This document shows positions 7,876-44,307 of a stretch of DNA of 64,000 bases, one piece after another. The DNA is from an uncultured Spirochaetales bacterium (lineage in GTDB: Bacteria; Myxococcota_A; UBA9160; SMWR01). The translations under genes and the position numbers were made by a program. The notes beneath the pieces are model-generated. The model did no database searches and was not told the origin of the DNA. It worked only from the letters and a program-made list of their open reading frames with translations. Numbering within the stretch: position 1 is the stretch's first letter; each line of letters starts with the position of its first letter. Where the stretch lies: NCBI GenBank assembly GCA_964437835.1, contig CAYTJA010000466.1, positions 6,019 to 70,018 on the forward strand, given 5' to 3'.

Positions 7876-7925
7876 GGCTCCTCCTGCGGTGGGATCAGAT
7901 CGGGTCGAAGAGCGCGCGGGCCGCG

Positions 7926-8741
7926 TCAATCGGAGGGCTCGCCGTGCCCGGCGTGCTCCGCGTGATTCGCATGCTCCGCGTGATCGTGCTCGAGCGCCTC
8001 GACCTCCTCCGCTTGCAGCAGCTGCTTCAGCAGCGGGTGTGGCAGCGTCATGTTCGTCGCGAAGGCACCCTGCGGGTGGTCGATCAGCCACACGTGCAGC
8101 ATCTCGGGGCTCTTGTGGCTGAAGTCGCCGGCAGCACAACGGCCCTCCGGCTCGGGACGCCCGACCGGGATCATGCCGCGCAGCAGACACGCGCCCTTCG
8201 GCCATACGTGGTAGTGCCAGAGGGTCCGCGGCCCGCCGATCTGCAGGCCATGCTCCTCCGGCTTGCGCACGTAGTACATCACGCCCGCGAGCTTGCGGCC
8301 GCGATTCGTCTTCGCGTACATCAGCACTTCGGGCCGCGCGGGGTCGAGCAGCGCGTCGTCGAAGAGGTATTGCTGGTTCGCGAAGTGCGTCCGATCGCCG
8401 AAAATCGGCAGGAAGCCGTCCGCGGTCGCGCGCTCGAAGTCGTACCAGCCGCGGCGCTGCGCGGCCTCGCGCGTGTGCTGCACGAGCTCGTCCGCGGCGC
8501 GCTGCTGCTCGGGCGTCGGCGGTCGGTCCACGGGCCACTGCGTCAGCTCGTACATCACCATGCCCGGCAGCTGCTCCGGAGCCAGCGTGCCCGCGGAGAG
8601 CGGCTTCCAGCTGCGGGGGCTCACGTTGACTGCCGACACCTGGATCTCCGACAGCCGACCGGATTCCGACTCCCGCGCTCCACATCCCGACCCCGCGGCC
8701 GCAAGCAGGAACGCGAGCCCGAGTGCGCGCGCGCGGCTCAT
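7926..8741 (-). CDS. putative lipoprotein with His-rich C-terminal tail
   Basis: 271-aa ORF with a signal peptide and lipobox-like LLAAAGSGC. C-terminal HDHAEHANHAEHAGHG. Its start overlaps the stop of the upstream gene (8738-8741). Confidence 0.7.
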   Translation of the reverse strand: MSRARALGLAFLLAAAGSGCGARESESGRLSEIQVSAVNVSPRSWKPLSAGTLAPEQLPGMVMYELTQWPVDRPPTPEQQRAADELVQHTREAAQRRGWYDFERATADGFLPIFGDRTHFANQQYLFDDALLDPARPEVLMYAKTNRGRKLAGVMYYVRKPEEHGLQIGGPRTLWHYHVWPKGACLLRGMIPVGRPEPEGRCAAGDFSHKSPEMLHVWLIDHPQGAFATNMTLPHPLLKQLLQAEEVEALEHDHAEHANHAEHAGHGEPSD

Positions 8742-9244
8742 CGCGGCGCCCAGAAGCGCTGCCAGCTCTCGAAACTTTCCGGCACCGAACCTTTGCCGGT
8801 GCCGAGCTCGGGCCAGCCCGAGGGCGGCAGATCGATCGGATTGCGCCCGAACTCGGCCCCGTAGAACAGCAGGTGCTTGCGGCGCGCGAACAGCCAGTGG
8901 CCGTCGCTGCGCTCGTAGCGATCCTGATATTGGATCGCCTGCACGATCCAGCGGCCCTGCTGCACGACCTGCGCATGGCAGTAGACGAAGCCGTGCGCGT
9001 GGTCGTCGTCCTCGAGCTCGATCACGTGCGTGCCGACGTTCAGGATCGTGAGGCCGACCGCGCGCAGGCTGCGGTCGAAATCTTCCCGCAGCGCCTGGCG
9101 TCCCGAGAGCTCGCGCGAAACCCGCACCTCCGGCACGTAGAGCTGGACCAGGCGATCCAGATCGCGCGTGTCCATGTAGAGCGCGTAGCGACTGGCCAGC
9201 TGCCGGATCTCCTCGTAGGCCAGCAGCCGCTCGACGTCGTTCAT
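8738..9244 (-). CDS. SnoaL-like / NTF2-fold family protein
   Basis: 168-aa ORF. N-terminus MNDVERLLAYEEIRQLASRYALYMDTRDLDRLVQLY is typical of SnoaL_4-type proteins. Confidence 0.65.
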   Translation of the reverse strand: MNDVERLLAYEEIRQLASRYALYMDTRDLDRLVQLYVPEVRVSRELSGRQALREDFDRSLRAVGLTILNVGTHVIELEDDDHAHGFVYCHAQVVQQGRWIVQAIQYQDRYERSDGHWLFARRKHLLFYGAEFGRNPIDLPPSGWPELGTGKGSVPESFESWQRFWAPR

Positions 9245-9246
9245 GC

Positions 9247-9582
9247 TCAGTTCGTCGCGCTGGTGGGGTCGGACGCGCGGCCGCGGGCGAGCAGAAGCGT
9301 CTGCACGCAGCAGAGCGCGGTGCTGCAGCTGAAGATCGCCATCAGGAAGCCGAAGGCCGTCATGCGCAGTGCGCTTCCGTCACGGACCGCATTGTCCACG
9401 AGGTTTGCGAAGAGCGCGAGCAATGCGACGAAGAGAAGCGTCGCCGAAAGCGATTCGAGGATCTCGCGCGGCTTGCCGGCAGCTGCGAACGCGACTGCGA
9501 GCCAGCCCGCCACCACGAGCCCGACGGCTCCCCAGCCGATCGGGGTCAGGATCTCTGCGAGCTGCGCCAAGAAGTCGGCCAT
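9247..9582 (-). CDS. small integral membrane protein
   Basis: Track ORF 9247..9741 trimmed to ATG 9582 (MADFLAQLAEILTPIGWGAVGLVVAGWLAVAF...) with GGAGAG upstream. About three hydrophobic helices. Confidence 0.55.
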   Translation of the reverse strand: MADFLAQLAEILTPIGWGAVGLVVAGWLAVAFAAAGKPREILESLSATLLFVALLALFANLVDNAVRDGSALRMTAFGFLMAIFSCSTALCCVQTLLLARGRASDPTSATN

Positions 9583-15726: not shown

Positions 15727-16809
15727 GTGCGGATGGGTTGCGCGATCGTCGGAACAGCGCTCTTCGCGGGCGCCTTCGGGGCGCTGGTGTTCGGCAGCGG
15801 CGGCCCCGACGACGCCCGGGGAGCGGGCAATGCGTCTCGCAGCGCTGCCGCGCTCCGCGCTGCCGAAGCATCCGCGCCGCAATCGCGCCGAGCCCCGCTC
15901 GCTGCGCCGGGCTCCCGAGCCACGACCCGGCTGCCACGGATCCGCCCGGCAGCGGCAGCGCCGACCGCAGCCGCGCTGGCCTCGCGCGAGCAGCTCGAAG
16001 TCTGGAAGCGCCAGCTGCGCGACGGCGCGCGGCGCGAGGTCGTCGGGAACGCGGAACTCGCGCGAACGCAGGCCCGCCTGCGCTCGCTCGATGCGCGCGA
16101 GCTCGGCGCGCTGCGGGAGCTGATCGAGGCCAATGAACTCTCGGAAGCGTCCTCGGGACACGACCTCGACGACGGCGACGGCCGTTTCGAGCCGTGGGAG
16201 CTCGGCTTCCAGATCTGGGAGCACGGGCACCTGGTGCTGCTCGCGCTAGGTCCGGATCCCTACGCGAGCTACGGCTATGCGCTGCGCGCGCTGCCCGAGG
16301 CCGTCGCGGCCTTCGAGCGGCTCGAGCTGCTCGATCTCAGCGGCGGCGAGCTCGGGCAGCTGCCCGACGCGCTCGGCCGGCTAGCGCAGCTGCGCGAGCT
16401 GCGCCTCGCGCACAATCAGCTCGACGCCCTGCCCGAGAGCCTCGGAGAGCTGATCCAGCTCGAGCGCCTGGTGCTGAGCGCCAACCGGATCGAAGCGCTG
16501 CCCCGCTCGCTGCGCGGCCTCGAACAGCTCGAGGAGCTCTGGCTCGCGGACAATCCCCTCGCAGAGCTGCCGGCCGAGCTGCTGGAGCTGCCCGCGCTGC
16601 GCCAGCTCGACGTCTCGCAGTCGCTCGGCGCGGCGCAGCTGCCGCCCGAGCGCGGGCTGCGCGAGCTTCCGGAGGTCGCGCGCGCGGCGAGGCTCGAAGC
16701 GCTCTACGTCGCCGGAAACCGGCTGTGTGGCGCGGCCGTCTCCGCTGCCCGCTTCGACGGCTCGGCTCGCCCACTTCGCGGTCTCGGGCTGCAGCGCTGC
16801 GAAAGCTGA
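15727..16809 (+). CDS. leucine-rich repeat (LRR) protein with N-terminal hydrophobic segment
   Basis: 360-aa ORF. N-terminal CAIVGTALFAGAFGALVF. The C-terminal half is a run of LxxLxLxxNxLxxLP units (LELLDLSGGELGQLPDALGRLAQLRELRLAHNQLDALPESLGELIQLERLVLSANRIEALPRSLRGLEQLEELWLADNPLAELP...). Confidence 0.75.
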   Translation: MRMGCAIVGTALFAGAFGALVFGSGGPDDARGAGNASRSAAALRAAEASAPQSRRAPLAAPGSRATTRLPRIRPAAAAPTAAALASREQLEVWKRQLRDGARREVVGNAELARTQARLRSLDARELGALRELIEANELSEASSGHDLDDGDGRFEPWELGFQIWEHGHLVLLALGPDPYASYGYALRALPEAVAAFERLELLDLSGGELGQLPDALGRLAQLRELRLAHNQLDALPESLGELIQLERLVLSANRIEALPRSLRGLEQLEELWLADNPLAELPAELLELPALRQLDVSQSLGAAQLPPERGLRELPEVARAARLEALYVAGNRLCGAAVSAARFDGSARPLRGLGLQRCES

Positions 16810-16836
16810 ACGCATGCGCACCACACGAGTTGGCTG

Positions 16837-19800
16837 ATGGCGCGGCGCGGAAGACTCGTGCTCGAGCGCGGCCCCGAAGACGCGGTCGGCCTGCCCGCCT
16901 CGCTCGAGGCCGAGCGCCTGATCCTGGGCCGCGGCAGCGATTCCGACATTCGGCTCCCGGTCGCCGCGGTCTCGCGCGTGCACGCCGAGATCGTCTGGCA
17001 GGGCGAGCGCCTGATGCTGATCGCGCGCAGCACGACCAGCCCGACCGCGGTGAACGGCAGCAGCCTCGAGGGCTCGCGCGAGCTCGCGGACGGCGATCAG
17101 ATCGAGCTCGCGAACCAGGTGCTGCTGCGCGTCGAGCTGCCGCCGGCCGAGCCTGCGCGGGTGGCTGCGGATTCCGCCACGCTGGTGTTTGCCGCGCCGA
17201 CTCCGACTCCGGTGGCTCCAGCGCGCGCCCCGGTGGCGCCCGCAGCTCCGGCGGCGCCGGCGGCTCCTGCGGCGCCAGCAGCCCCTGCGACGCCCGCGCC
17301 CGTTGCGGCGCCAGCAGCGCCTGCGACACCCGTACCCGCTGCGCCGCCGGCAGCCCCTGCTAGGCCCGTACCCGCTGCGCCGCCGGCAGCTGCGGTCGCG
17401 GCTCCGGCAGCGGTCGCTCCGTCCCCCCCCGCCGCTGCGCCCGCGCCAGCCGCGGCGCCTGACGCGTTCAAGGGCCCCGCGCGCATCGCGATCGTCGGCG
17501 CGGGACCCGCCGGCATCGCCGCGGGGGTGCAGGCCGCCAAACGCGGCGTGCCTCACGTGCTGCTCGAGCGCGGCCGCCTGGCCGAGACGATCGAGCGCTA
17601 CCAGAAGGGCAAGTTCGTGATGGACGAGCCCACCCGGCTCACGCTGCATCCCGAGCTCGAGGTCGGCTTCAAGGCCGGCGCGCGCGAGGAGATCCTCGCG
17701 ACCTGGCAGAAGGCCGTGTCGCAGGCCGGAGTCGAGCTGCGCTGCGGGCGCGAGTTCGGGGTCCAGGAGATCCGCGGGCAGCGGGGGGCCTTCGAGCTCG
17801 TGTTGCGCGGTGGCGAGCGAATCCAGGCCACCCACGTGGTGCTCGCGATCGGGGTGCAGGGCAATCTCAAGAGCTTCGGCGTCGCAGGCGACGATCTGCC
17901 CCACGTCACCTATCAGCTCGACGACCCAGCCGCCTACGAGGGCAAGCGCGTCGCGATCGTCGGCGTCGGCGACGCCGGGATCGAGAACGCGCTCGCGCTC
18001 GCGCAGCACGACAACGACGTCTTCATCGTGAACCGGCGCGACGAGTTCGCGCGCGCGAAAGCGCGCAACCGCGCGCTCGTCGATGCCGCGATCAAGAGCG
18101 GCCAGATCGCGCACTACACCCACAGTACGGTCGACCACTTCGAGCCCGGCGCGGTCGTGCTGCGCCGCAAGGAAGGTCAGGAGCGCCTCGAGCTCGACCT
18201 CGTGATCGGCCGCCTCGGCGGAAACCCGCCGCGCGACTTCCTGCAGGGCCTCGGCGTGCAGTTCGCGTCGGAAGATCCCGAGGCCGTGCCCGAGCTCTCG
18301 CCGAGCTACGAGACGAACGTTCCGGGCATCTTCGTGATCGGCGCGCTCGCGGGCTACCCGCTGATCAAGAACTGCATGAACCAGGGCTTCGAGGTCGTCG
18401 AGCACATCCTCGGCCAGCCCGTCACCCCGGCCGACGAGCCGCTGTTGCGCGAGAAGTTCAAGGGCATTCCGGGCAGCGTCAGCGAGATTCTCGAGCGCAT
18501 CCGCCGCCGCGTGCCGGTGTTCCGCGATCTCACGCCGGTCCAGCTGCGTGAGTTCTTGTTCGAAGCGGAGGTGAAGCAACTGAAAGCTGGCGAGGTCGTC
18601 TACCGCCGCAACGACTACACCAACGAGTTCTACGCGGTGCTCGCGGGCAAGGTCGCGCTCGAGGAGCCCTCCCTGGAACGCGACGTCGACGTCGGGCGCA
18701 CGATCGCGTTCACGCGCACGCTGCTCGCACAGGACATCCAGGGCTACCGGCGCGAGGTGCCGATCGGCGGCTTCTTCGGCGAGACCGAGCTCTTCTCGGG
18801 TCGGCGTCGCAGTGCGACGGCCACCGCGCTCGAGCCGACCCTCGTCATCGAGGCGCCGCGCCTCTCGATGGCGCGGCTGCTGCAGTCGACTCCGGCCGTG
18901 CAGCGAGCCGTGGATGCGGTGTTTGTCGAGCGCACGCTCGAAAAGCGCCTGCCCGAGCTCTCCGCGGCCGAGCGCGCGGCGCTCGCGGCTGCGGCCGAGA
19001 TCCGCCACTACCCCCCCGATCAGGTGATCTTCAAGGAAGGCGACGCGCCGGACGGTCTGCACCTGATCCGGCGTGGGTCGGTCGCGATCCAGCGCGTGGT
19101 CGACGGCCGCGAGCGCGTGATGCAGTACCTGCAGACCGGCGCGTGGCTCGGCGTGATGGGCGTGCTGTCGCCGGAGCTCGGCCGCCGAGCATCGGTGCGC
19201 GCGAAGGTGCTGACCGAGACGCTGCTGCTGCCGCAAGCCGCGCTGCTGCCGCTGCTCAAATCGAACCGCGCGCTGCGCGAGGGGCTCCAGCGCTGCGCGA
19301 ACGAGGACGCCGTCTGGGACGCCATGCAGGCCGAGGGCGGCGGCGGAACGATGCTCTTCATTCTCGACAAGACCGGGGCCTTCGAGGCCACCGACCTGCT
19401 GCTGATCGACGAGTCGCTCTGCATCCGCTGCGACAACTGCGAGAAGGCCTGCGCGGACACGCACCTCGGCCTCTCGCGCCTCGATCGCGAAGCCGGGCCG
19501 ACCTATCAGACCTCCGGCGGCGCGCAGCTGCACGTGCCGACGGCCTGCCAGCACTGCGAGAACCCGAAGTGCATGGAGGACTGCCCACCCGACGCGATCC
19601 GCCGCCACGCGAACGGCGAGGTCTACATCAAGGACAACTGCATCGGCTGCGGCAACTGCAAGAACAACTGTCCCTACGGCGTGATCCAAATGGCGACGGT
19701 CGAGCCGTATCGGAAGGCGAACCTGCTGGCTCAGCTGCTGCTCGGCAGCAGCCCGAAGCGCGGCGGCGGCGCGCACGCCGAAGGCGAGGCGCACTCCGAA

Positions 19801-19947
19801 GCCGCGGTGAAGTGCGACCTCTGCCAGGGGCTGCCCGCGCCGAAGCGCGGCGGCACGCGCGCGGCCTGCGTCGCGGCCTGCCCGACCGGAGCGATCGTGC
19901 GCGTCGAGCCGCGCAACTTCATCGCCGAGCTGGTCAAAGGGCGTTGA
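16837..19947 (+). CDS. multidomain redox/signalling protein: FHA, Pro/Ala linker, FAD/NAD(P) pyridine-nucleotide-disulfide-oxidoreductase-like domain, 2x cyclic-nucleotide-binding domain, 4Fe-4S ferredoxin clusters
   Basis: 1036-aa ORF. FHA (LILGRGSDSDIRLPVAAVSRVHAEIVWQG...INGSS-type). IAIVGAGPAGIAAG and VAIVGVGDAGIENA dinucleotide folds. cNMP motifs GGFFGETELFSGRRRSATATA and FKEGDAPDGLHLIRRGSV. Cys clusters CIRCDNCEKAC, CQHCENPKCMEDCP, CIGCGNCKNNCP, CDLCQG...CVAACP. Confidence 0.85.
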   Translation: MARRGRLVLERGPEDAVGLPASLEAERLILGRGSDSDIRLPVAAVSRVHAEIVWQGERLMLIARSTTSPTAVNGSSLEGSRELADGDQIELANQVLLRVELPPAEPARVAADSATLVFAAPTPTPVAPARAPVAPAAPAAPAAPAAPAAPATPAPVAAPAAPATPVPAAPPAAPARPVPAAPPAAAVAAPAAVAPSPPAAAPAPAAAPDAFKGPARIAIVGAGPAGIAAGVQAAKRGVPHVLLERGRLAETIERYQKGKFVMDEPTRLTLHPELEVGFKAGAREEILATWQKAVSQAGVELRCGREFGVQEIRGQRGAFELVLRGGERIQATHVVLAIGVQGNLKSFGVAGDDLPHVTYQLDDPAAYEGKRVAIVGVGDAGIENALALAQHDNDVFIVNRRDEFARAKARNRALVDAAIKSGQIAHYTHSTVDHFEPGAVVLRRKEGQERLELDLVIGRLGGNPPRDFLQGLGVQFASEDPEAVPELSPSYETNVPGIFVIGALAGYPLIKNCMNQGFEVVEHILGQPVTPADEPLLREKFKGIPGSVSEILERIRRRVPVFRDLTPVQLREFLFEAEVKQLKAGEVVYRRNDYTNEFYAVLAGKVALEEPSLERDVDVGRTIAFTRTLLAQDIQGYRREVPIGGFFGETELFSGRRRSATATALEPTLVIEAPRLSMARLLQSTPAVQRAVDAVFVERTLEKRLPELSAAERAALAAAAEIRHYPPDQVIFKEGDAPDGLHLIRRGSVAIQRVVDGRERVMQYLQTGAWLGVMGVLSPELGRRASVRAKVLTETLLLPQAALLPLLKSNRALREGLQRCANEDAVWDAMQAEGGGGTMLFILDKTGAFEATDLLLIDESLCIRCDNCEKACADTHLGLSRLDREAGPTYQTSGGAQLHVPTACQHCENPKCMEDCPPDAIRRHANGEVYIKDNCIGCGNCKNNCPYGVIQMATVEPYRKANLLAQLLLGSSPKRGGGAHAEGEAHSEAAVKCDLCQGLPAPKRGGTRAACVAACPTGAIVRVEPRNFIAELVKGR
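17269..17390 (+). repeat. degenerate 36-nt (12-codon) tandem repeats encoding the Pro/Ala linker
   Basis: Exact 26-nt direct repeat CCCGTACCCGCTGCGCCGCCGGCAGC at 17329-17354 and 17365-17390. Related units GCGGCGCCAGCAGC(C/G)CCTGCGAC start at 17269 and 17305. Period is 36 nt. Confidence 0.7.
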
Positions 19948-19949
19948 GC

Positions 19950-20999
19950 GTGGCCGTGGCCTTCGACCCGCTGATGCGACTTCGCGCGCGCGACCGCCGC
20001 CGGCTCGCAAGCGGCCTCGGGCTGGGCCTCGCGCTGGGCCTGGCACTCTGCGTGGCCGGCTGGCCCGGCACCGGCGTCAGCCTCGCGGGCTTCTGCGCCG
20101 CGAGCGGCCTCGGGCTCGGCTGGGCCAACTGGCCGCAGTGGCGCAAGGCCGCCTGGTGGCGCGGCCGCGGCGGCCTGCCGAAGAGTTACGCCCCCCGCAG
20201 CTTCCTGCGCTACGGGAACTTCCTGCACCTGAAGCTCGCGCTGACTGCCGTGGCCGCCGCCTCGCTCGCCTATCTCCTCGACGACCCGCCCGGAGGTCCC
20301 AGCGGGGGCAGCGCCCTCGGCTATGCGCTCGGGGTCTTCTCGACCGCGTTGGTCGTCTGGCTGCTCTGGTTCGGCGTGCGCAAGCGGCGCTACGACGGCG
20401 GCGGCGCGCCGCTGCAGGCCTGGCTCTCCGGCCACGTCTACCTCGGCCTGACGCTGCTCGTGCTGGTGCCGCTGCACTGCGGCTTCCAGTTCGGCTGGAA
20501 CGTGCACTCGCTGGCCGGAGCCCTGCTGTTCCTGACGCTCGTCTCCGGGATCTTCGGGCTCGTGGCCTACACGCAGATTCCCGCGCGCATGACGCGCAAC
20601 CGTCCCGGTCAGCAGCTCGAGGGCCTGCTGCAGCAGGTCGCCGATATCGACGAGCAGCTGCGCGCCGAGGCGCGCGAGCTGCGCAATGCCGAGCCCGTGC
20701 GGCGCGCGATCGAAGAGACCCGGATCGGTGGCGGCCTCGCGGCGCTGCTCTTCTTCTCGGAGGCGAATTGCGCGACCACGCAGGCGCAGGCCGCGCTGAA
20801 GCGCGCGCGCGACGACGACCCCGGTCTGCTGCGCCCGCTCGAGCTGCTGACGACCAAACAGGCGATCCTGCGCCGCGTGCGGCGCGACCTGCGCTACAAG
20901 GCGCTGCTCGACCTATGGCTCGTGCTGCACGTGCCGCTCTCGCTCGCGTGCGTGGCTGCGGTTGCAGTGCACGTGCTCGCGGTCTTCTACTACCGGTGA
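19950..20999 (+). CDS. polytopic membrane protein with two H-x13-H transmembrane helices (di-haem cytochrome-b-like)
   Basis: Track ORF 19143..20999 trimmed to GTG 19950 (alternative ATG 19974), 3 nt after the upstream stop. About 7 hydrophobic helices. GHVYLGLTLLVLVPLH and LHVPLSLACVAAVAVH each place two His exactly 13 residues apart. Confidence 0.65.
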   Translation: MAVAFDPLMRLRARDRRRLASGLGLGLALGLALCVAGWPGTGVSLAGFCAASGLGLGWANWPQWRKAAWWRGRGGLPKSYAPRSFLRYGNFLHLKLALTAVAAASLAYLLDDPPGGPSGGSALGYALGVFSTALVVWLLWFGVRKRRYDGGGAPLQAWLSGHVYLGLTLLVLVPLHCGFQFGWNVHSLAGALLFLTLVSGIFGLVAYTQIPARMTRNRPGQQLEGLLQQVADIDEQLRAEARELRNAEPVRRAIEETRIGGGLAALLFFSEANCATTQAQAALKRARDDDPGLLRPLELLTTKQAILRRVRRDLRYKALLDLWLVLHVPLSLACVAAVAVHVLAVFYYR

Positions 21000-21002
21000 C
21001 AC

Positions 21003-22841
21003 ATGCGACTGCGCCTGATCCAGGTCACGAGGCGGAAGTCCGGGCGCGAGTCGCGGCGCGAGTCGCAGCTCGAGGGCGAGCTGCTCGCACTCGGGCGCGG
21101 CTCCGACTGCGACCTCGAGCTCGTCGACCTGTCCGTCGCGCTCCGGCACGCGGAGCTGTTGCGCAAGGGCGATGGCGTGTACCTGCGGCCGGTCGGCCGC
21201 AGCGAGCTCAGCGTCTCGGGCCAGCGCTGCGTCGGCGAGCGGCGACTCGCGGTCGGCGATGTGGTGCGCATCGGTCCCTTCGAGCTGCGCGCGATCGCGG
21301 CCGAGGCCGGATTCGATCTCGCGCTCGAAGTCGAACAGATGGCGCGCCGCGAGGACGCGCGCGGCGAGCTCGCCAAGCGCAGCCGCCTGACGGTCGAGGG
21401 GGGATGGTTCTCGCGCCGCACGCTCTCCTTTGCCGGCGTCGCGGTGGTGCTGCTCGGCTTCCTCGTGCTGCCGCTCGCGCTCGGGCGCGCGGGCTCCTGG
21501 AGCAGCGGGCCCCTCTCCCACAAACACTCGTTCGCGGCCGATGACTGCGGCGAGTGCCACACGCGCGCGTTCGCCACCGTCGAGAACGGCGCCTGCCTCG
21601 ACTGCCACGCGGAGATCGGCAACCACAGCGACTCCCCGGCGCTCGCAGCCGCCGGCATGACCGGGGCCGCCTGCACCGACTGCCACAGCGAGCACGCGGG
21701 CGAGCCCGGTCTGCTCGCGCGCGCGCAGGACAGCTGCGCGGGCTGCCACACGGATCTCTCGCAGCGGCTCGAGCAGCCGCGCGTCGCGAATGCGAGCGAC
21801 TTCGCTGCGGACCACCCCGAGTTCCAGCTCGCGATGCTCGACCCCGCCACGCGCAAGGCGACCCCCGTCGGCTGGCAGCGGGATCTCGAGGAGCGCTCCG
21901 GCGTGGCCTTCTCACACGCGCGGCACGTCGGTGAAGCATTGCCCGAGGTGCCGGAGCGCCTGCGCAGCGACCCCGCGCGCAAGAGCGAGCCGCTGCGCTG
22001 CTCGAGCTGCCACCAGCTCGAAGCGGGAGGCCAGCGCATGCAGCCGATCGAGTTCGAGAAACACTGTCAGGCCTGCCACCAGCTCGGCTTCGACGCCGCG
22101 CTGCCGGACGACCAGGCGCCGCACGCGAAGCCGGTCGAGCTGCGCGAGGGGCTGCGCAGGCTCTACGCCGCGCAGGTGGTCGCGGGCAATGCGGCCGCGG
22201 TCGCGCTGCCGGAGGCGCTGCGCTTCCGGATCCCCGGCTCGACGCTCTCGGACCAGGAACAGTCGCAGGCGCAGGGCTTCGTCGACGCCCGCGTCCGGCG
22301 CGCCGAGCACGCGCTCTACGTCGAGCCCGGCGAGTGCGCGCGCTGCCACGCGCTCGAGCGCGACGCGCCGGCTGCGAGCGAAGAGAGCGGAGCGGGCGAA
22401 GCGTCCCTGGCCAAGCCGCCGAGCGTTCCGCCGGTCTATATCACCGAGCGCTGGATGCCGCAGTCGATGTTCCGGCACGCGACGCACGCGCCCTTCCCCT
22501 GCGCGGACTGCCACCCGGCCGCGGCGGCCTATCTCGAGGGCGGCGACGCCGAGAACCCGCGCCCCGAGTGGTCGCTGCCGGAGGCCGGGCCCTTTGCCCT
22601 GCGCACAGAAGCCGAGCTCCAAGAGCTCGGGCTGACGCCCAGCAAGCTGGCGTCCGACCTGCTGATTCCCGGCATCGAGCAGTGCCGCGGCTGCCACGGC
22701 GGCGAGAATGCGCGGCCGCCCGAGGTGGCCTCCGAGTGCAGCCTCTGCCACCGCTTCCACCGCGCCGAGCACGGGCCGATGCAGCCGGGCGGCGCGGCGC
22801 GGCCCTCGCCGGTGGCCCGCAACGCGGCGCACTCGGACTGA
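21003..22841 (+). CDS. FHA domain - single TM - decahaem c-type cytochrome
   Basis: 612-aa ORF. N-terminal FHA-like LALGRGSDCDLELVDLSVALRHAELLRKGDGVYL. TM helix LSFAGVAVVLLGFLVLPLAL. Ten CxxCH motifs: CGECH, CLDCH, CTDCH, CAGCH, CSSCH, CQACH, CARCH, CADCH, CRGCH, CSLCH. Confidence 0.85.
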   Translation: MRLRLIQVTRRKSGRESRRESQLEGELLALGRGSDCDLELVDLSVALRHAELLRKGDGVYLRPVGRSELSVSGQRCVGERRLAVGDVVRIGPFELRAIAAEAGFDLALEVEQMARREDARGELAKRSRLTVEGGWFSRRTLSFAGVAVVLLGFLVLPLALGRAGSWSSGPLSHKHSFAADDCGECHTRAFATVENGACLDCHAEIGNHSDSPALAAAGMTGAACTDCHSEHAGEPGLLARAQDSCAGCHTDLSQRLEQPRVANASDFAADHPEFQLAMLDPATRKATPVGWQRDLEERSGVAFSHARHVGEALPEVPERLRSDPARKSEPLRCSSCHQLEAGGQRMQPIEFEKHCQACHQLGFDAALPDDQAPHAKPVELREGLRRLYAAQVVAGNAAAVALPEALRFRIPGSTLSDQEQSQAQGFVDARVRRAEHALYVEPGECARCHALERDAPAASEESGAGEASLAKPPSVPPVYITERWMPQSMFRHATHAPFPCADCHPAAAAYLEGGDAENPRPEWSLPEAGPFALRTEAELQELGLTPSKLASDLLIPGIEQCRGCHGGENARPPEVASECSLCHRFHRAEHGPMQPGGAARPSPVARNAAHSD

Positions 22842-22925
22842 CATTATCGGTCTCGCGACACCACCGCCTCTCCACCCCCGCGAACTGATAGAGTGGCGTT
22901 CGGGGGGAGTAAAGGTGGCGCCGAT

Positions 22926-23570
22926 ATGCAGACTCGAGTCGTGGCGCTATTCGCTGCTCTCATGCTCGCCCCGCTCCAGAGCTCGGCCGGTTCCGGTGGA
23001 GTCGTCACCTTCGGAGGTAGCTCAACACCGGAAGGCTGCACAGGCGGCAACTGCCATCCGGAAGGCAGCCCGGGCTTGACGACTCAGCTCAGCGGTCCCG
23101 GCTCCGTATCGATCGGCACCTTGAATCAATACACGATGAGCGTGGCAGGGGTGACAGCGCTTCAGTTCTGCGGAATCAATATCGCAGCGGACAGCGGCAG
23201 CCTGATGGCGGCCCCACCTTGGACCCAGAAGTACATCTTCTCCGACCAGTTGACGCACACGCAACCGACTCAACCCTGCAGCTTCACATTCGGCTGGGTG
23301 GCACCTGGAACGCCCGACACCTATTACCTCCGCGCGACGGCCGTGGCGGGGAATTCGAATGGCAACCGACGCGACGACACCGCAGTTCCGCTCAACGCAT
23401 TTCCCATCACCGTGCTGCCGGAGCCGAGCCCAAACATGCTGCTGGCAATCGCGGTCGCCACGCTGACCCTTGCCTCGGGCGGTCGTGCCCCCGAGCAGCG
23501 TCCGCTCAGAAGGACACGTCGGCGCCGATGGTCCACAGCACATCGGGGCGCAAGCCATTCTGGCGATTGA
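22926..23570 (+). CDS. secreted protein with CX4CH motif and PEP-CTERM-like C-terminal anchor
   Basis: Track ORF 22893..23570 trimmed to ATG 22926 (signal peptide MQTRVVALFAALMLAPLQSSAG). CTGGNCH motif. C-terminal LPEPSPNMLLAIAVATLTLA followed by an Arg cluster. Lies in a lower-G+C patch. The last 65 nt overlap the convergent OMP gene. Confidence 0.5.
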   Translation: MQTRVVALFAALMLAPLQSSAGSGGVVTFGGSSTPEGCTGGNCHPEGSPGLTTQLSGPGSVSIGTLNQYTMSVAGVTALQFCGINIAADSGSLMAAPPWTQKYIFSDQLTHTQPTQPCSFTFGWVAPGTPDTYYLRATAVAGNSNGNRRDDTAVPLNAFPITVLPEPSPNMLLAIAVATLTLASGGRAPEQRPLRRTRRRRWSTAHRGASHSGD

Positions 23571-24858
23571 GCGGAAAGGACGTATTCCAGAACAGCACCA
23601 CGGTGCCGAAGGGGTTCACCTTGCCACCGACGCCGATGTCCACGGTCGGATCGCCGGAGCGCGGAACGCGCCCGAAGACGTCGGCGGCGAGGGTCAAGCG
23701 CTGAAAGACGCGGACATCCGTCCCCAGGACGTAGCGGAAGGAGTCGCTCGCGGCGGGTCCCGTCGACGCTTCCAATCCGAGGTTCGTGTGGGGAGTGAAG
23801 AGGCTCACTTCCTTCGAGGCGATCATCCAGCCGCCGAAGTCGACCTCCCCGGTCCCCTGGAAGTCGTCTTCGTTGCCGGTATTGAGCTTGATCTGCCCTA
23901 GCACGGCGAGGTCGGGGATGTACTGCTGATCGTCTGCGAAGTGGTACTTCGTGCGCAGCAGCACGTCCCCGATGCCGCCCGACTCCTCGCTGCCCTGGTC
24001 CGTGGAGGGATCTTCGCTCGGAAGGCAGGGGGGCAGCCCGGGTTCGTCGCAGAAATGATGCTTATTGGTGTCAGCGGGCGCAGTGGAAGGATTCGCCGAG
24101 CTGTCCACCCTGGCGACGCTGCGCACCGAGAGCTTCGTGTGTGCAATCGGGAGCATGAAGCCGACGTCCCAACGCTCGGTGATTCCGTAGTTGACGAAGA
24201 ATCGGAACACGTCCTGCGAGAGCTTCAGATCCAGATCGACGATGATGTTCTCGAACTCGAAGGCGGGAAAACCCGGATTGGGCGGCTGGCCGGGGCAGCC
24301 TTCGGGGCGATCGGCCCCGCTCGCACAATCGTCATCGTGGAGAAACACTCGTTGGAGGGAATTCAGATCCTCTCCGTTGAATACCTTGAATTCCTGGCTC
24401 GAAAAGCTGAGACCGAAATTGACCTTGTTCCTTCCGACGGTCTGCGCGCGCTCCGCGAGCAGGGGGCCGAGGCTCTGCGTGGATCGAACGAAGACCGCCT
24501 CGTCCAGATCGAAGGTGAAGGCATTGACTCCGGAGGTGGGCGGGGACAGGTTCGAGGCAGCGCTGATCGCGCTACTCAACTCGGCGAGTTCGGTGATGCC
24601 AGAACCGCTGAAGTGTGCGGTGTGGCCGGCGGAGAAAGTCCTGTCGAGCGTGATCCCGTCGCCTCCGTAGAGGCCGAGGAGCGCATCCGAGACGTCGGCG
24701 TGGGCGGGCGGCGAAGCTCCAGCGATCCAAACGCCGGAAGCGAGAGCAGCTGCGAACCCTGTGCAGCGAGAGCTGGAACCAGCCAACGATCCCTCCAGCC
24801 ACCCCCCACTCGCCTTCCGGCCGCATTCTCTCAAGCGCCCTGCAGGTGGGTCAAGCAC
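23506..24858 (-). CDS. outer-membrane beta-barrel protein
   Basis: 450-aa ORF (start uncertain). Signal-peptide-like AAALASGVWIAGASPPAHA. Alternating amphipathic strands. C-terminus ends ...WTIGADVSF (aromatic terminal residue typical of OMPs). Confidence 0.7.
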   Translation of the reverse strand: MLDPPAGRLRECGRKASGGWLEGSLAGSSSRCTGFAAALASGVWIAGASPPAHADVSDALLGLYGGDGITLDRTFSAGHTAHFSGSGITELAELSSAISAASNLSPPTSGVNAFTFDLDEAVFVRSTQSLGPLLAERAQTVGRNKVNFGLSFSSQEFKVFNGEDLNSLQRVFLHDDDCASGADRPEGCPGQPPNPGFPAFEFENIIVDLDLKLSQDVFRFFVNYGITERWDVGFMLPIAHTKLSVRSVARVDSSANPSTAPADTNKHHFCDEPGLPPCLPSEDPSTDQGSEESGGIGDVLLRTKYHFADDQQYIPDLAVLGQIKLNTGNEDDFQGTGEVDFGGWMIASKEVSLFTPHTNLGLEASTGPAASDSFRYVLGTDVRVFQRLTLAADVFGRVPRSGDPTVDIGVGGKVNPFGTVVLFWNTSFPLNRQNGLRPDVLWTIGADVSF

Positions 24859-24907
24859 TTCCCCGAACCGCGGCTCCGATGAGGCCTGGCTTCGGCATTC
24901 GAGCGAT

Positions 24908-27301
24908 CTAGCCGCCCTTCATGGTCGCGATCCGCCAGACGCCGTCCTTGCGGGAGATTTCCGCGCGCATCTGGCGCGTCTCTCCATTGATCGTCTGGCG
25001 GAAGGTCGCGATCACGATCCCGTCCTGATGCTTCGCGTCGATCAGCTGGGTCTGGACGGCGGAGGCCGGATGCTCCGCGAAGTACGCCCCCATGCTGTCC
25101 CGCTGGATCTCGCTGAGGACCCGAACTCCCTGCATTTCCGCGAGGCTGCCCCTCTGATAGGCGTTCCGGTAGCGCTCCAGGACTTCCTCGGCGACGCGTC
25201 CTGCGTCGAGCTCGTCTTCCACGGAGACGCTGACGATCCGGCTGGTGGACTCGCTGCGGGCGTCGACGGCCTGGAACTCCAGGGTGTGAGGGCCGGAAGC
25301 GGCGGGCGCATAGCGGAACTCGAAATCGGGAGAGGAGGAGGTCGCAACCTCCTGCTGGTCGACGACGACCCGCAGCGATACCGGGCCCTGGGTGTTTCTC
25401 GCCAGCGCCCGGAAGCTCTGCGTGCTTCCCAGCTTCATTTTCTGTGTCGACGAGGCAGGCGTGAGCTCGAGCTCGAGCGCCTTCGCGACCAGGACAGCCG
25501 GTACCGGCGCGGAGACCGGCAGCACCGATGCACTCGTCACCACGGCCCCGGCAGGGGGCCGTGCAGACACGTCCGGGAGGCGCACCGATGTCGTCCCCAT
25601 CTCCAGGGCCGCGATGAAATACTCGCGCGCGCGGCGGAGCTGGGTTTCGGCCTGCTCGAAGGATTCCTCCTCTTGCAGGGTGCGAGACTCGGCGAGGGCG
25701 AGGCTCCCGGCTTCGACCTCCGCTCGGACCCGCGGATCTCTGGACACGAGCGAGCGACTCGAGCGCTCCGCGCTCTCTGCACTCAGCCATTGGGAGCTGA
25801 GGCGCGCGATCCACGCGGCGCGGACCTGCTCGAGCTGCTCCCGAGCCTGGCTGCCCGATGCTTCGATGCGATCGAGCCTGGCGACATCCGTCGCCGCCGC
25901 GGCGCACGCTGCATCGCCCGCAGCAGCCGCTCCGCTCGCCGGCGGCTGCAGCGTCTCTGCGACCGAGCGCTTCAGCTCCGCGAGACGTTCGGGGTAGAGC
26001 GCGCCCACGCCAGCGTGCTCCAGCTTGCGCAGTCCCGTATCCAGCCGTCCACGCGCGTCTTCGACGATCGGGTGCACCGAGCGCCTGGCCTCCTGGCACA
26101 CTTCAGCCAGGCCCTTTCGAATGCCAGCGAGCGCGGAGCCGAGCTCCGCGACCTGCCCTTCGGCGACCTGGGAGCGAGACGCTTCGAGTTCCGACTGGAG
26201 GTCGATCAGGCGCTGGCTCAGCTTTTCCACCAGCGTGGGGTCGGGGAGTAGCGGGGCGAGTCGCTGCACTTCGCCCACGACTCCGGAGGCCTGCTCCCAG
26301 TGGGCCCCTGCGGCGACCAGGCGTTGCTGATTCACGCGAGTCTGGTTCCAACGCCATGCCGTGGTCCCGCCGAAGGCAAGACTCAGAAACAGCCCGCCGG
26401 CGAGCAGGCTGAGATGGATCCGACGCCACAGGCTCCGGGCGGCGATCTCGGGAACGTGGCCCGAGCTCGATGGAAACGCTCGAGCCAGCGCCTCCTGCAT
26501 CTCCTTCGCGTCCTGATAGCGGTCACCCGGCTTCATGCGGGTGGCTTTCGCGATCAGCTTGCTGATTCGCGGGTCGAAGCCGTCTGGAAAGCTGAACTCG
26601 ACTTCGGCACCGGCTCTGTCCAGCCCGCCGAGATAGAACAGCACGGCGTGGTCCTTCTTGAGATCGATGCCTTCGACGGTCGCGTAGGCAGAATGTTCCG
26701 CCAGCGACCAGTAGAGCGAGAGTCCCATCGAGAAGACATCTGCCGACGCGAGCGCGCGTCTGCCACTCGCTTGCTCGGGCGAGATGTACAGAGCGGTTCC
26801 CATCACTTGGGTGCGGTCGTTGCTCGTGAGCTCGTCGCGCGATATGCCGAGATCGCTGACCAGCACCCGTCCGTCGTCACACAGCAGGATGTTCGCCGGC
26901 TTGATGTCGCGGTGGACGAGGTGCTTCCGATGCAGCTCGGCCAGGCCTTCGAGGGCCTCGCGGTAGATCCGAACCGCATCCTCGAGGGACAGCTGGCCTT
27001 CCGCATGGAGGTTCGAGCCCCGCACGAGCTCCATGGCATACCAATACAAGCCGGCCGCTTCGTCCTTCCCGCGGTCGTAGATCTGGACCAGGTTCTGATG
27101 CTTGAATTGCGATAGGCGCTTGGATTCAGCTTCGAATTCTCTCCACAGCTCCCCTGAGGCGAACTGAGGCTTCAGCACTTTTACAGCGCAGGGGCGATCC
27201 CATTTTTCGTCCCAGGCCTCGTAGACCCAAGCCATCCCGCCCTCTCCGAGGAGATCCTTGACCGGGAAGTTGGGAATCTTGGGAAACGAACCCGAATCCA
27301 T
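24908..27301 (-). CDS. receptor-type Ser/Thr protein kinase (Hanks-type) with TM and large extracytoplasmic region
   Basis: 797-aa ORF. GEGGMAWVY...AVKVLK, HRDIKPANILL, DLGISR, GTALYISPEQ motifs. TM helix LSLLAGGLFLSLAFGG. Long C-terminal region ending in an NTF2-like module. Confidence 0.9.
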   Translation of the reverse strand: MDSGSFPKIPNFPVKDLLGEGGMAWVYEAWDEKWDRPCAVKVLKPQFASGELWREFEAESKRLSQFKHQNLVQIYDRGKDEAAGLYWYAMELVRGSNLHAEGQLSLEDAVRIYREALEGLAELHRKHLVHRDIKPANILLCDDGRVLVSDLGISRDELTSNDRTQVMGTALYISPEQASGRRALASADVFSMGLSLYWSLAEHSAYATVEGIDLKKDHAVLFYLGGLDRAGAEVEFSFPDGFDPRISKLIAKATRMKPGDRYQDAKEMQEALARAFPSSSGHVPEIAARSLWRRIHLSLLAGGLFLSLAFGGTTAWRWNQTRVNQQRLVAAGAHWEQASGVVGEVQRLAPLLPDPTLVEKLSQRLIDLQSELEASRSQVAEGQVAELGSALAGIRKGLAEVCQEARRSVHPIVEDARGRLDTGLRKLEHAGVGALYPERLAELKRSVAETLQPPASGAAAAGDAACAAAATDVARLDRIEASGSQAREQLEQVRAAWIARLSSQWLSAESAERSSRSLVSRDPRVRAEVEAGSLALAESRTLQEEESFEQAETQLRRAREYFIAALEMGTTSVRLPDVSARPPAGAVVTSASVLPVSAPVPAVLVAKALELELTPASSTQKMKLGSTQSFRALARNTQGPVSLRVVVDQQEVATSSSPDFEFRYAPAASGPHTLEFQAVDARSESTSRIVSVSVEDELDAGRVAEEVLERYRNAYQRGSLAEMQGVRVLSEIQRDSMGAYFAEHPASAVQTQLIDAKHQDGIVIATFRQTINGETRQMRAEISRKDGVWRIATMKGG

Positions 27302-27574
27302 CGAAGTACCCGGAAGCGCCTGCTGCAGCGCCCTGCGCCACCGCCATCAGCGGCGACGCTAGCCAGGAATAGGGGCCTCCTCGCCACGATCAAAGTAACC
27401 CACGGCGAGGCCCGGCGGCGAGAAGAGTTCGAGGAACCCACCTCGATGCGTCCGCCGACATTCCGCTTCCATTCGCAGCGAGCGGGTGTCTAGAATCGCC
27501 GCGGCTGCGGGGACCGGTTAGGAGCATCGACCATCGGCCAGCGCGAAGCATCGCCCGGCGAAGCAAGGACTCGA

Positions 27575-29635
27575 TTGCGCCTCAGCACCACGGGGATCTA
27601 CTGCGTCGCCGCCGCATCGGCGCTGTTGCTGGCGAGCTGCAAAGGGAAAAGCAGCCCGCGCGGGGGCCCGGACTCCCTCTGCGATGGCGCGTGCCTGCAA
27701 CAGGCGCTTACGCAGAACGATGTCGAGCACGTGGTCGCGCAGGCCAGCATCGAGGCGCAGGCCCAGGGCCTGCCGGTCACGATCGCGGTAGTCGACCGCG
27801 TCGGAAATGTGCTCGCGGTGTTCCGCATGACGGGCGCGTCGACCACCGTGGAGATCTCGGCCGGCCGTTCGAGCGCAAACGGTTCGGGGCTCGCCGGCTT
27901 CGAAATCGAGACGACGCTGGCCGCGATCAGCAAGGCCGGCACTGCGGCCTATCTCTCCTCGCAGGGCAACGCCTTTTCCACCCGGACCGCGAGCCAGATC
28001 GTGCAGGAGAACTTCAACCCGGGGGAGCGCGTGCGCGCGGGTGGCCCACTCTTCGGCGTGCAGTTCTCGCAGCTTCCCTGCGGAGATTTCGTGCGGCGTT
28101 TCGAGAGGAATGGCCTGACCGAGGACGTCTCGCTCGGACCCAAGCGCATGCCGCTCGGCTTCTCGGCCGATCCGGGCGGACTTCCGCTCTACAAGAGCGG
28201 CGTGCCCGTCGGCGGCGTCGGGATCGAGCTCGGCACGAACGCGAGCGCGCCGGCCGAGCAGAGCTACCGAACCGATCCCGACGTGCTCGACCAGGACGTC
28301 CAGCGCGAGGAACGCATCGCGACTGCCGCGGCTGTGAGCTTTGCGGCGCCCGCGAACCGGCGCGCGAACGCGATCTCCGTCGACGGCCGCTTCCTGCGCT
28401 TTGCGGACGATGAGCGCGTCTCGACGCAGCCGATCCCACTCGCGACGCCCGTGACTCTCCCGCCCTCGCTCGGGGTACTCGTGGATGTCGACGGCTTCTT
28501 CGCCGGGGGCGGCGTCCTCGCGGGCACGGAATTGCTGACCCCGGCCTCCGGCATCGTCGCGAGCAGTGTGGACGGGATCGCGGCCGAGCTCGTGGTCAAA
28601 ACGGACGGCACGAATCGCTACCCCGCGATCGACTCGCTCGTGCCCACGCCGGCGGCGGGCGGCATGAGCACCGCCGAAGTCACCGCCGTGCTGCGCGAGG
28701 CATTGCGCGTCGCCGGCCGCTCGCGCGCGCAGATCCGCCGGCCCGCGGGCTCGTCGGTGCGCGTGAACATCTCCATCGTCGACACCGAAGGAACGGTGCT
28801 CGGCTTCGCGCGCACGCCCGACGCGCCGATCTTCGGCGCGGACGTCTCGCTGCAGAAAGCGCGCACGGCGGCGTTCCTGTCGCGGCTCGTGCCTACCTCC
28901 GCAGCCGACGATCTGATCGCGGCGCTCCCGCCACTGCCGGAAGTCACCGCGAAATTCGACACGCGCCCGGTTTCCGAATACCTGATCGCGGCCCAGACTT
29001 TCCTCGCGAAGCCCGATGTCCTCGACGACGGCACCGCGATCAGCGACCGCACGCTCGGCAACCTCGCGCGGCCTTTCTTCCCGGACGGCGTGAACGGCAA
29101 CCCGCCCGGCCCCTTTTCGCGCGTCTTCGAGCGCTGGAGCCCCTTCTCGACCGGGCTGCAGCTCGACGCCGGCCTGCAGGGCATCGCGGTTGCGCTGTGC
29201 CGGAGCTCGCGCGAGCTCCGCAGCCTCCTGTCGATGACCGCCGTCGGCATGTCTCTGATCCCCCCGATCGACCCCGACTTTCCGAACACCTGTCCGGCCG
29301 AGCCGATCGCCTGCACCGATGCGCTCGGCCTCGACCCCGCGCTGCGCGAGCTCGCGAACGGCCTGCAGATCTTTCCCGGCAGCGTGCCGATCTACCGCGG
29401 CTCGCAGCTCGTCGGCGCGATCGGGGTCTCGGGGGACGGCGTCGATCAGGACGACATGGTCGCGTTCCTCGGCCTGCACAACGCGGGCCAGCTGCTCGGC
29501 ACCGGGATCGGAAACGCCCCGATTGCGCAGCGCGCCGACCAGATCCAGGTCGGCGGCGTCAACCTGCGTTATGTGAGCTGTCCGCCGAGCCCCTTCCTCG
29601 ACAGCTCGGAGCAGAGCCCGTGCAAGGGACTGTGA
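27575..29635 (+). CDS. lipoprotein with two GlcG/HbpS-like (DUF336) putative haem-binding domains
   Basis: 686-aa ORF (TTG start). Lipobox LLLASC. Domain 1: VTIAVVDRVGNVLAVFRM...AISKAGTAAYLSS...GGLPLYKSGVPVGGVGI. Domain 2: VNISIVDTEGTVLGFARTPDAPIFGADVSLQKARTAAF...IYRGSQLVGAIGVSGDGVDQDDMVA. Confidence 0.7.
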   Translation: MRLSTTGIYCVAAASALLLASCKGKSSPRGGPDSLCDGACLQQALTQNDVEHVVAQASIEAQAQGLPVTIAVVDRVGNVLAVFRMTGASTTVEISAGRSSANGSGLAGFEIETTLAAISKAGTAAYLSSQGNAFSTRTASQIVQENFNPGERVRAGGPLFGVQFSQLPCGDFVRRFERNGLTEDVSLGPKRMPLGFSADPGGLPLYKSGVPVGGVGIELGTNASAPAEQSYRTDPDVLDQDVQREERIATAAAVSFAAPANRRANAISVDGRFLRFADDERVSTQPIPLATPVTLPPSLGVLVDVDGFFAGGGVLAGTELLTPASGIVASSVDGIAAELVVKTDGTNRYPAIDSLVPTPAAGGMSTAEVTAVLREALRVAGRSRAQIRRPAGSSVRVNISIVDTEGTVLGFARTPDAPIFGADVSLQKARTAAFLSRLVPTSAADDLIAALPPLPEVTAKFDTRPVSEYLIAAQTFLAKPDVLDDGTAISDRTLGNLARPFFPDGVNGNPPGPFSRVFERWSPFSTGLQLDAGLQGIAVALCRSSRELRSLLSMTAVGMSLIPPIDPDFPNTCPAEPIACTDALGLDPALRELANGLQIFPGSVPIYRGSQLVGAIGVSGDGVDQDDMVAFLGLHNAGQLLGTGIGNAPIAQRADQIQVGGVNLRYVSCPPSPFLDSSEQSPCKGL

Positions 29636-31824: not shown

Positions 31825-31837
31825 GGCCGATCCACAC

Positions 31838-40243: not shown

Positions 40244-40251
40244 GGCAAGCG

Positions 40252-44248: not shown

Positions 44249-44307
44249 GTTTCCTCCCGCGGCCCGCAGGGCCGCCGTACCCCGTTTCGGCCGGAGGCGC
44301 GCTCGAG

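Follow-up and report, generated by a model that had tools for sequence, protein, structure and literature searches.

Two preprints have described gene clusters resembling the one reported here, a set of three adjacent genes (genes 2-4) in a 64,000-nucleotide (nt) stretch of contig CAYTJA010000466.1 from an uncultured Spirochaetales bacterium. This stretch is called the window, and unless another locus is named all coordinates refer to it. The ptdABCDEFG cluster of oxygen-deficient-zone marine Alphaproteobacteria was described bioinformatically, with a porin-cytochrome role suggested and the function given as unknown (Elbon et al., bioRxiv 10.1101/2023.11.21.568154). In Ferrigenium straubiae, the 'NHC' cluster encodes a protein that consists of an FHA domain, a transmembrane (TM) helix and a nonahaem cytochrome, beside a 5-TM protein and a [4Fe-4S] protein; the authors called the FHA/multihaem combination unreported and its function unknown (bioRxiv 10.64898/2026.01.22.701106). 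The cluster was expressed under all conditions tested (bioRxiv 10.64898/2026.01.22.701106; PMC10734462), and a 10-haem 'forkhead-associated protein' is listed for 27 genomes in a 2023 pangenome of the Gallionellaceae (PMC10734462). The two preprints arrived independently at localisation predictions similar to ours. Our literature search found no later characterisation of ptd and no experimental characterisation of any module member.

Genes 2-4 encode, in this order, a protein with FHA, flavin, cyclic-nucleotide-binding (cNMP) and iron-sulfur (FeS) domains, a divergent cytochrome-b-like membrane protein, and a decahaem cytochrome anchored by one TM helix. With a probability of roughly 0.55, these genes form the inner-membrane module of a trans-envelope electron conduit that leads from NAD(P)H to the decahaem, runs outward and is probably gated by cyclic nucleotides. 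An original prediction, made from the letters of the window alone, knew of no characterised respiratory module with this arrangement. This is correct in that none has been characterised, but ptd and NHC show that modules of this kind had already been noticed. The variant in the window carries an FHA domain on its gene 2 and an HbpS/LVIVD outer module, and has an LRR gene and a kinase gene as neighbours.

The inner-membrane set reported for ptd matches the one found here: an FAD/NAD(P) oxidoreductase, a cNMP and 4Fe-4S protein, a 'ferric-reductase-like' membrane protein, a decahaem and a tetrahaem cytochrome. The ptd-type inner order (cNMP/4Fe-4S protein, membrane protein, decahaem) is also that of window genes 2-4. 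Comparison was made through loci with the penta-haem/porin/tetra-haem layout; in four such ptd-type loci (L015, L034, L036 and L073, from our set of 84 related loci), identity to the window is 42-46% for the flavin part of gene 2, 37-45% for gene 3 and 28-29% for gene 4. The flavin and cNMP/FeS parts form one protein in the window and likewise in the ptd-type loci read. Sixteen cysteines, corresponding to four clusters, were counted here, as against two clusters reported in the ptd preprint. The outer module of ptd is a penta-haem cytochrome with a porin, whereas that of the window comprises an HbpS-like lipoprotein, a barrel of 730 amino acids (aa) and a 10-haem/LVIVD protein. No open reading frame (ORF) with five CxxCH motifs was found in the window, nor any significant match to the L034 and L015 counterparts of the penta-haem PtdA and the porin PtdB. 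Compared with ptd, only the window has the extra FHA domain on gene 2 and the attached LRR and kinase genes.

The NHC cluster differs in other respects. Its authors saw no redox motif in the 5-TM protein, whereas gene 3 has four invariant histidines and a weak similarity to cytochromes b. They propose inward transfer to quinone, whereas outward flow is favoured here. In the Betaproteobacterial loci read, the flavin/cNMP protein does not lie beside gene 3. Four loci labelled Betaproteobacteria or Lysobacter (L028, L031, L077 and L057) carry genes 3 and 4 and the outer module beside cytochrome c maturation (ccm) genes, and the flavin/cNMP/FeS gene is not upstream.

The gene 2-3-4 unit and its proteins

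The original prediction described a tightly packed four-gene operon that began with the LRR gene. All four ORFs are present on the same strand (Table 1), and their coding status is backed by third-position G+C in a window of about 71% G+C. The intergenic gaps, read from the junction sequences, are the predicted 27, 2 and 3 nt. Gene 3 may instead start at TTG 19944, with a 4-nt overlap, or at ATG 19974, and is tightly coupled to gene 2 either way. A scan for promoters and terminators returned counts equal to the shuffled-sequence expectation, and therefore neither supports nor opposes an operon.

Synteny was assessed by tblastn of the window proteins against the 84 related loci, which come from Alpha-, Beta- and Gammaproteobacteria and from genomes labelled Myxococcota. 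The order gene 2 - gene 3 - gene 4 is colinear in about 66 of them, with median gaps of 4.5 and 8 nt. The LRR gene, on the other hand, lies outside this conserved arrangement. It was matched only in the two closest loci, L001 (50%) and L002 (43%), and is on this evidence a lineage-specific accessory addition; by the same comparison, genes 2-4 are a genuine conserved unit. A survey of one genome per species found gene 3 relatives in at least 582 species among the Alpha-, Beta- and Gammaproteobacteria and metagenome-assembled genomes (MAGs) labelled Myxococcota. Oceanibacterium hippocampi and Zavarzinia sp. are among the carriers in culture. When 1.84 billion cluster representatives were searched with a profile, 3607 relatives of gene 3 were obtained at E<=1e-3. 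In one locus (L087, positions 6001-9333; GCA_039908105.1), a 1110-aa fusion protein, P0187, joins gene 2 (flavin-cNMP-FeS) to gene 3 and is followed by a gene 4 homologue, with no outer module nearby. This fusion agrees with a cytoplasmic N-terminus of gene 3 that adjoins the FeS domain.

The domain order of gene 2 is FHA, Ala/Pro-rich linker, flavoprotein, two cNMP domains and ferredoxin; other family members begin directly at the FAD motif. As had been predicted, neither a signal peptide nor a hydrophobic segment was found. The flavin domain contains both the FAD and the NAD(P)H dinucleotide motifs, and AIVGsGPaG, YQLDDP and GaGDAxIENA...NR are conserved across the family. No Cys pair corresponding to the redox-active CxxC of TrxR is present in this domain, where the conserved YQLDDP is found instead. 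The closest solved relatives of the flavin part are YpdA/Bdr and TrxR and, because CxxC is lacking, the domain resembles YpdA/TrxR-type ferredoxin reductases rather than TrxR proper. The ferredoxin domain carries sixteen cysteines in four CxxCxxCxxxC-type groups (862/865/868/872, 904/907/912/916, 935/938/941/945 and 993/996/1011/1015), a capacity for up to four [4Fe-4S] clusters. Fer4_11 scored 33.3 bits against a threshold of 26.2, and the FeS part matches HycB, NrfC, FdnH and PsrB-like proteins in the PDB. Gene 2 is strongly conserved throughout its family, all cofactor motifs included.

Gene 3 belongs to a well-defined family with members of about 280 aa. Its topology comprises five core TM helices, a clade-specific N-terminal hairpin and an insert of about 100 aa between TM4 and TM5. 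The two H-x13-H pairs reported for this polytopic protein in the original prediction are present, with H162/H176 on TM3 and H327/H341 on TM5. None of these four residues varies in two alignments, one of 23 homologues and one of 30. H186 is also invariant. Basic residues, read from the alignment, cluster after TM2 and TM4 and before TM5 and place the insert in the cytoplasm. TM3 and TM5 would therefore be parallel, with one potential bis-His site near each face of the membrane.

At default thresholds, Pfam gave no match for gene 3. Weak matches to PF01292 (cytochrome b561 / Ni_hydr_CYTB) were obtained for all 23 homologues, the best at 2.3e-8, and weak matches to Ferric_reduct for 8 of the 23 (E 0.39 for the window protein); some homologues also match DUF4405 weakly. 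The AlphaFold2 (AF2) model of the core has a pLDDT of 89. A gene 3 profile compared with PDB sequences returned chance-level matches only. An hhalign comparison with FdnI aligned only the last helix, with the H-x13-H placed onto H155/H169 at about 1% probability, and no alignment was obtained with E. coli MsrQ or YodB. From the histidines, the topology and the weak family matches, we infer that gene 3 is a new 5-TM predicted two-haem cytochrome b.

The topology proposed for gene 4 was also found: an FHA-type domain, matched by the FHA profile at residues 30-91, is followed by a single TM helix, predicted to leave the N-terminus in the cytoplasm, and then by ten CxxCH motifs. Exactly ten CxxCH motifs occur in 73 of the 78 homologues. 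An exact look-up of the gene 4 product returned no record, and its solved relatives by sequence are FHA domains only, together with a marginal match to ActA.

The original prediction stopped at gene 4 and left out the lipoprotein, barrel, 10-haem/propeller protein and tetrahaem encoded further downstream. In most related loci, gene 4 is followed by an HbpS-like protein, a protein of about 700 aa without a family match and an LVIVD cytochrome of about 1300 aa, and the equivalent outer trio lies at 27575-35731 in the window. The gene 2-3-4 trio was found with this type-I outer module in 52 complete and 7 partial loci and with the ptd-type module in 4 loci, where it is joined to a porin-like protein, a penta-haem and a tetra-haem cytochrome. 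Association with two different outer modules suggests that the trio is a self-contained input module. The tetrahaem is common to both types (that of the window is 42-44% identical, over its full length, to those of L015 and L034), which suggests that the trio and the tetrahaem together constitute an inner module to which interchangeable outer modules are attached. Genes 2-4 are probably the inner-membrane part of a larger trans-envelope system.

Predicted electron route and competing explanations

From the observed domains, motifs, topology signals, conservation and synteny, we infer cofactor binding, subunit contacts, direction and regulation as follows. Gene 2 would oxidise NAD(P)H at its TrxR-like flavin (FAD) domain without a disulfide, and electrons would pass from FAD along up to four [4Fe-4S] clusters of the same protein. 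The FeS domain would dock on the cytoplasmic face of gene 3, in which the His pairs on TM3 and TM5 would hold two b haems, one near each membrane face. The outer haem b would reduce the periplasmic ten-haem wire of gene 4, tethered by its single helix, and from there electrons may pass to the c554-like tetrahaem and then to the HbpS-like lipoprotein, the barrel and the 10-haem/propeller protein. Throughput would probably be gated by cyclic nucleotides at the tandem cNMP domains, which are placed after the flavin domain and before the FeS wire. In the clade with an FHA domain on gene 2, extra gating may occur through phospho-Thr recognition by this N-terminal domain. Outward flow is favoured because electrons crossing a bare two-haem wire would follow the membrane potential only when they leave the cytoplasm. 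The topology, the cofactor sites and the conserved unit all fit the NAD(P)H-to-periplasm relay put forward in the original prediction, although the version in which a kinase assembles this relay through two phospho-Thr readers is not borne out as stated.

Parts of this scheme have counterparts in characterised enzymes. In FdnH/FdnI and in [NiFe]-hydrogenase/HyaC, as proposed here, a four-cluster ferredoxin feeds a transmembrane pair of b haems. However, the FeS subunit is periplasmic in Fdn-N and cytoplasmic in gene 2, and the His ligands are arranged 1+1+2 in FdnI-type subunits and 2+2 on two helices in gene 3. The far-side partner is quinone in the Fdn/Hya type and a c-type decahaem here, and gene 3 is below the Pfam threshold. 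Pairing a four-cluster ferredoxin with a PF01292-like di-haem protein would thus amount to FdnH/FdnI with the sides swapped. The logic of NOX/FRE and MsrQ-Fre is also alike, with NAD(P)H, flavin, two stacked b haems that two His pairs hold on two parallel helices and an acceptor outside, and it is electrogenic and outward. NOX and ferric reductases have an FNR-type flavin domain, whereas that of gene 2 is TrxR-type; no FNR-type domain was found in the module, and Ferric_reduct is unmatched. Compared with NOX, the module inserts a four-cluster FeS wire and cNMP domains into the route, consists of separate subunits and has a multihaem cytochrome as acceptor.

In the Tmc, Hmc and Dsr complexes of sulfate reducers, as in Geobacter CbcL and ImcH and Shewanella CymA, a membrane cytochrome b works with a multihaem cytochrome c in the periplasm. 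Tmc, Hmc and Dsr also have a cytoplasmic FeS protein, and CbcL, ImcH and CymA feed outer-membrane porin-cytochrome conduits. These systems use HdrD-like CCG, NarI/NrfD/HybB-type subunits or quinol and, unlike the window module, are not known to have flavin/NAD(P)H, cNMP or FHA domains. Pfam and NCBIfam scans of the module gave no match to CCG, NrfD or NapC/NirT, and the similarity of gene 2 to DsrO/QrcC is limited to the generic ferredoxin fold. The Uet cluster of Tenderiales, which came up in a literature search on LVIVD, is unrelated.

Several observations weigh against an NAD(P)H-fed, outward-directed and cNMP-gated module. The window's gene 3 scores 12.3 bits on PF01292, below the gathering threshold of 30.1, and two good AF2 models of gene 3 gave no significant Foldseek match in the PDB. 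The fusion protein P0187 retains gene 3's own Met at the junction and may therefore reflect read-through or a lost stop codon. The second cNMP domain in the window lacks the ribose-binding Glu, and no consistent linkage to the module is seen for cyclase or kinase genes. There are Fe(II) oxidisers among the carriers, for which inward flow has been proposed. Lastly, in about 18 of the 84 loci, mainly from Betaproteobacteria, gene 2 does not adjoin genes 3 and 4, so gene 3 may act with the quinone pool, gene 2 being perhaps optional.

This last observation leads to the most serious rival, in which gene 3, acting as a quinol dehydrogenase or as a reductase of quinone (compare FdnI, HyaC, CymA and CbcL), exchanges electrons between the decahaem and the quinone pool. 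Gene 2 would then sense redox state or cNMP, or serve as a second input, and not be the main donor. In the loci concerned, ccm or unrelated genes lie upstream of genes 3 and 4. Gene 3 keeps its conserved cytoplasmic insert in these loci. The Pfam family nearest to gene 3 is PF01292, and PF01292 comprises quinone-reactive cytochromes b. We nevertheless regard quinone coupling as unlikely. In about 66 loci gene 2 is closely coupled, or even fused, to gene 3, and it is highly conserved with all its cofactor motifs. For a four-cluster FeS wire to end beside a cytochrome b in the membrane is typical of a donor, and no quinone-site motif was identifiable. Genomes that seem to lack gene 2 could also encode it elsewhere.

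Electrons might instead flow inward, from an extracellular or periplasmic donor such as Fe(II) or a low-potential substrate of the 10-haem/propeller protein, through gene 4 and gene 3 to NAD(P)+ at gene 2. The module does occur in Fe(II)-oxidising Gallionellaceae, where the decahaem has been proposed to link an outer-membrane oxidase to the inner membrane. TrxR-type flavoproteins and FeS wires work in both directions. On bioenergetic grounds, however, inward flow through a two-haem wire would oppose the membrane potential, and reaching -320 mV would demand a donor far below Fe(II), with no proton-coupling element evident. Carriers are also mostly heterotrophic Alpha- and Gammaproteobacteria. 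Together these points make uptake through the module improbable.

To our knowledge, the extracellular electron-transfer conduits described so far take their electrons from the quinone pool. If the NAD(P)H-fed reading is true, the conduit would be non-energy-conserving and driven with the membrane potential. It would lend itself to reductive work on the outside of the cell, for instance reducing metals so that they can be taken up, reducing reactive nitrogen or oxygen species, or supplying a surface enzyme. The cNMP and FHA domains, if regulatory, would represent a rare case of direct signal control built into an electron-transport module. The family is large, as the counts of species and sequence clusters given above indicate, and occurs in abundant marine and soil Proteobacteria; two preprints report its expression in nature. 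With cultured carriers available (Tistlia consotensis, per a preprint, in addition to the two named above), the question is experimentally tractable. A wider claim, that these modules make up a new class of prokaryotic electron exporter, is put forward tentatively, and we would sooner bet against it than on it. Such an exporter would be a modular analogue of NADPH oxidase, driven by NAD(P)H with the aid of the membrane potential, with interchangeable outer cytochrome systems and carried by hundreds of mostly aerobic species. It would be tuned by cNMP and, in one clade, by Ser/Thr phosphorylation that an FHA domain reads.

Signalling domains on genes 2 and 4

The tandem cNMP domains of gene 2 were absent from the original prediction. 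Domain 1 has a canonical phosphate-binding cassette (FGE...RRRSAT), and domain 2 has GE...RxAT in the family and GV in place of GE in the window. As candidate regulators, the cNMP domains are more conserved than the FHA domain. Cyclase genes occur near only four of the related loci: CHASE2-adenylate/guanylate cyclase genes flank the cluster in L002 (1-3126 and 20322-20858 of that locus), and similar genes lie near only L071, L050 and L017.

The FHA domain of gene 2 is restricted to a Myxococcota-labelled clade (L001, L005-7, L009, L010 and L019 among the 84 loci). It aligns to the FHA domain of M. tuberculosis FhaA (3po8; 4e-11) with GR and SRxH kept. In the window GR and SRVH are present, and the loop Asn is replaced by Ser but is Asn in clade relatives. 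Judging by these residues, the domain appears to be a genuine phospho-Thr reader, and gene 2 may come under phospho-regulation in the clade concerned. The linker that follows (aa ~100-210, window 17140-17470) is Ala/Pro-rich and contains repeated Thr-Pro motifs (TPTPVAP, ATPAPV, ATPVPA). Speculatively, and by analogy with GarA/OdhI, these motifs could be Ser/Thr-kinase sites for the adjacent FHA domain.

The FHA-like domain of gene 4 presents a different picture. It is present in all 77 homologues examined and scores equally well as an FHA domain (37.3 bits against a cut-off of 20.7) and as the phospho-independent YscD-type fold (Yop-YscD_cpl; 39.3 against 33.2). Gly-Arg is kept in 75 of 75 domains, but the phosphate-binding Ser is present in 11 of the 77 homologues and is Ala in the window, and the Asn position holds Asn in 5 of the 77 and Glu in the window. 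The domain is thus more likely to be a phospho-independent structural docking element, probably for the cytoplasmic face of gene 3. Since both are universal, this domain and the cytoplasmic insert of gene 3 are plausible partners.

A receptor-type Ser/Thr kinase gene, also missing from the original prediction, lies 2 kb downstream of gene 4 on the opposite strand and encodes a candidate partner of the gene 2 FHA domain. It falls within a lower-G+C interrupting stretch and has no counterpart in related loci; no kinase gene was found near the module in the 84 loci. The proposal that a kinase assembles or disassembles the relay through phospho-Thr readers at both soluble ends can draw on this gene, on the FHA scores of both N-termini and on the GR and SRxH of gene 2, but it is very doubtful given the substituted Ser and Asn positions of gene 4, its equally good YscD-type match, the lack of an FHA domain in most gene 2 homologues and the isolated position of the kinase.

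Outer module and surroundings of the locus

The features of the locus are listed in Table 1. The HbpS-like lipoprotein gene is colinear in about 59 loci. The 730-aa barrel-like protein gave no match in Pfam or NCBIfam and is 50-71% identical in related loci. The 10-haem/LVIVD protein is the most conserved protein of the system, with 56-83% identity across phyla, which suggests an enzyme rather than a passive wire; no solved-structure relative of it was found by sequence.

Table 1. Coordinates of genes and domains in the 64-kb window
Feature	Coordinates	Strand	Supporting evidence
LRR protein, 360 aa	15727..16809	+	LRR_8/LRR_4 matches; hydrophobic anchor or signal aa 3-25; LRRs ~aa 184-315
Gene 2, 1036 aa, predicted cytoplasmic	16837..19947	+	Pfam and NCBIfam matches; no TM segment
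Gene 2 FHA domain, aa 29-91	16921..17109	+	FHA 46.1 bits vs cut-off 20.7
Gene 2 flavoprotein domain, aa 216-517, TrxR-like	17482..18387	+	Pyr_redox_3 3.2e-29; Pyr_redox_2 9.9e-25
Gene 2 tandem cNMP domains	18529..19281	+	cNMP_binding 3.7e-31, 107.4 bits vs 27.5
Gene 2 ferredoxin domain	19402..19896	+	Fer4_11, Fer4_7, Fer4_10 matches; four Cys groups
Gene 3, 349 aa, divergent cytochrome-b-like	19950..20999	+	invariant His; 5-TM core; weak PF01292 matches
Gene 4, 612 aa	21003..22841	+	FHA-like domain aa 13-96; TM helix aa 138-166; ten CxxCH aa 182-583
Small secreted ORF	22926-23570	+	signal peptide; one CX4CH (CTGGNCH); PEP-CTERM-like tail (VLPEPSPNMLLAIAVATLTLASGGRA); no Pfam match
Putative outer-membrane beta-barrel-like protein	23506..24858	-	weak Phenol_MetA_deg match; absent from related loci
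Receptor-type Ser/Thr protein kinase, 797 aa	24908..27301	-	Pkinase 9.6e-28; PknB-like 1.7e-59; HRD and DLG motifs
Lipoprotein, three HbpS-like (GlcG/DUF336) domains	27575..29635	+	HbpS-like 2.1e-25 in three stretches; lipobox LLLASC
Predicted outer-membrane protein, 730 aa	29632..31824	+	signal peptide; C-terminal beta-barrel-like region ending ...TLTY
Secreted 10-CxxCH cytochrome fused to LVIVD beta-propeller, 1297 aa	31838..35731	+	LVIVD, Cytochrome_C7; weak ExtM match
c554-like tetrahaem cytochrome, 445 aa	35756..37093	-	Cytochrome_C554 2.6e-9

The junction of gene 4 with the HbpS-like gene, otherwise conserved, is split in the window by a 4.7-kb stretch of lower G+C (22842-27574). Repeats flanking this stretch gave only short, chance-level matches, and so provide no evidence of a mobile element.

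Further downstream, a protein with HDOD and GGDEF (diguanylate cyclase) domains is encoded at 37241-38761 (+), divergent from the c554-like tetrahaem gene, and could be a further signalling link. An aldo/keto reductase gene and then a molybdopterin oxidoreductase gene with an Fe4S4 domain follow at 39389-42423 (+). Nonulosonic-acid and sugar-nucleotide genes (NeuB, PIG-L, ATP-grasp, 2-epimerase, DegT, NTP-transferase-CBS) occupy 42432-50831. Genes for a sigma-54 activator and for flagellar export (FliOP, FlhA, FlhF) lie at 53403-63998; the latter indicate a flagellated organism, which is odd beside the Myxococcota label of the nearest MAGs.

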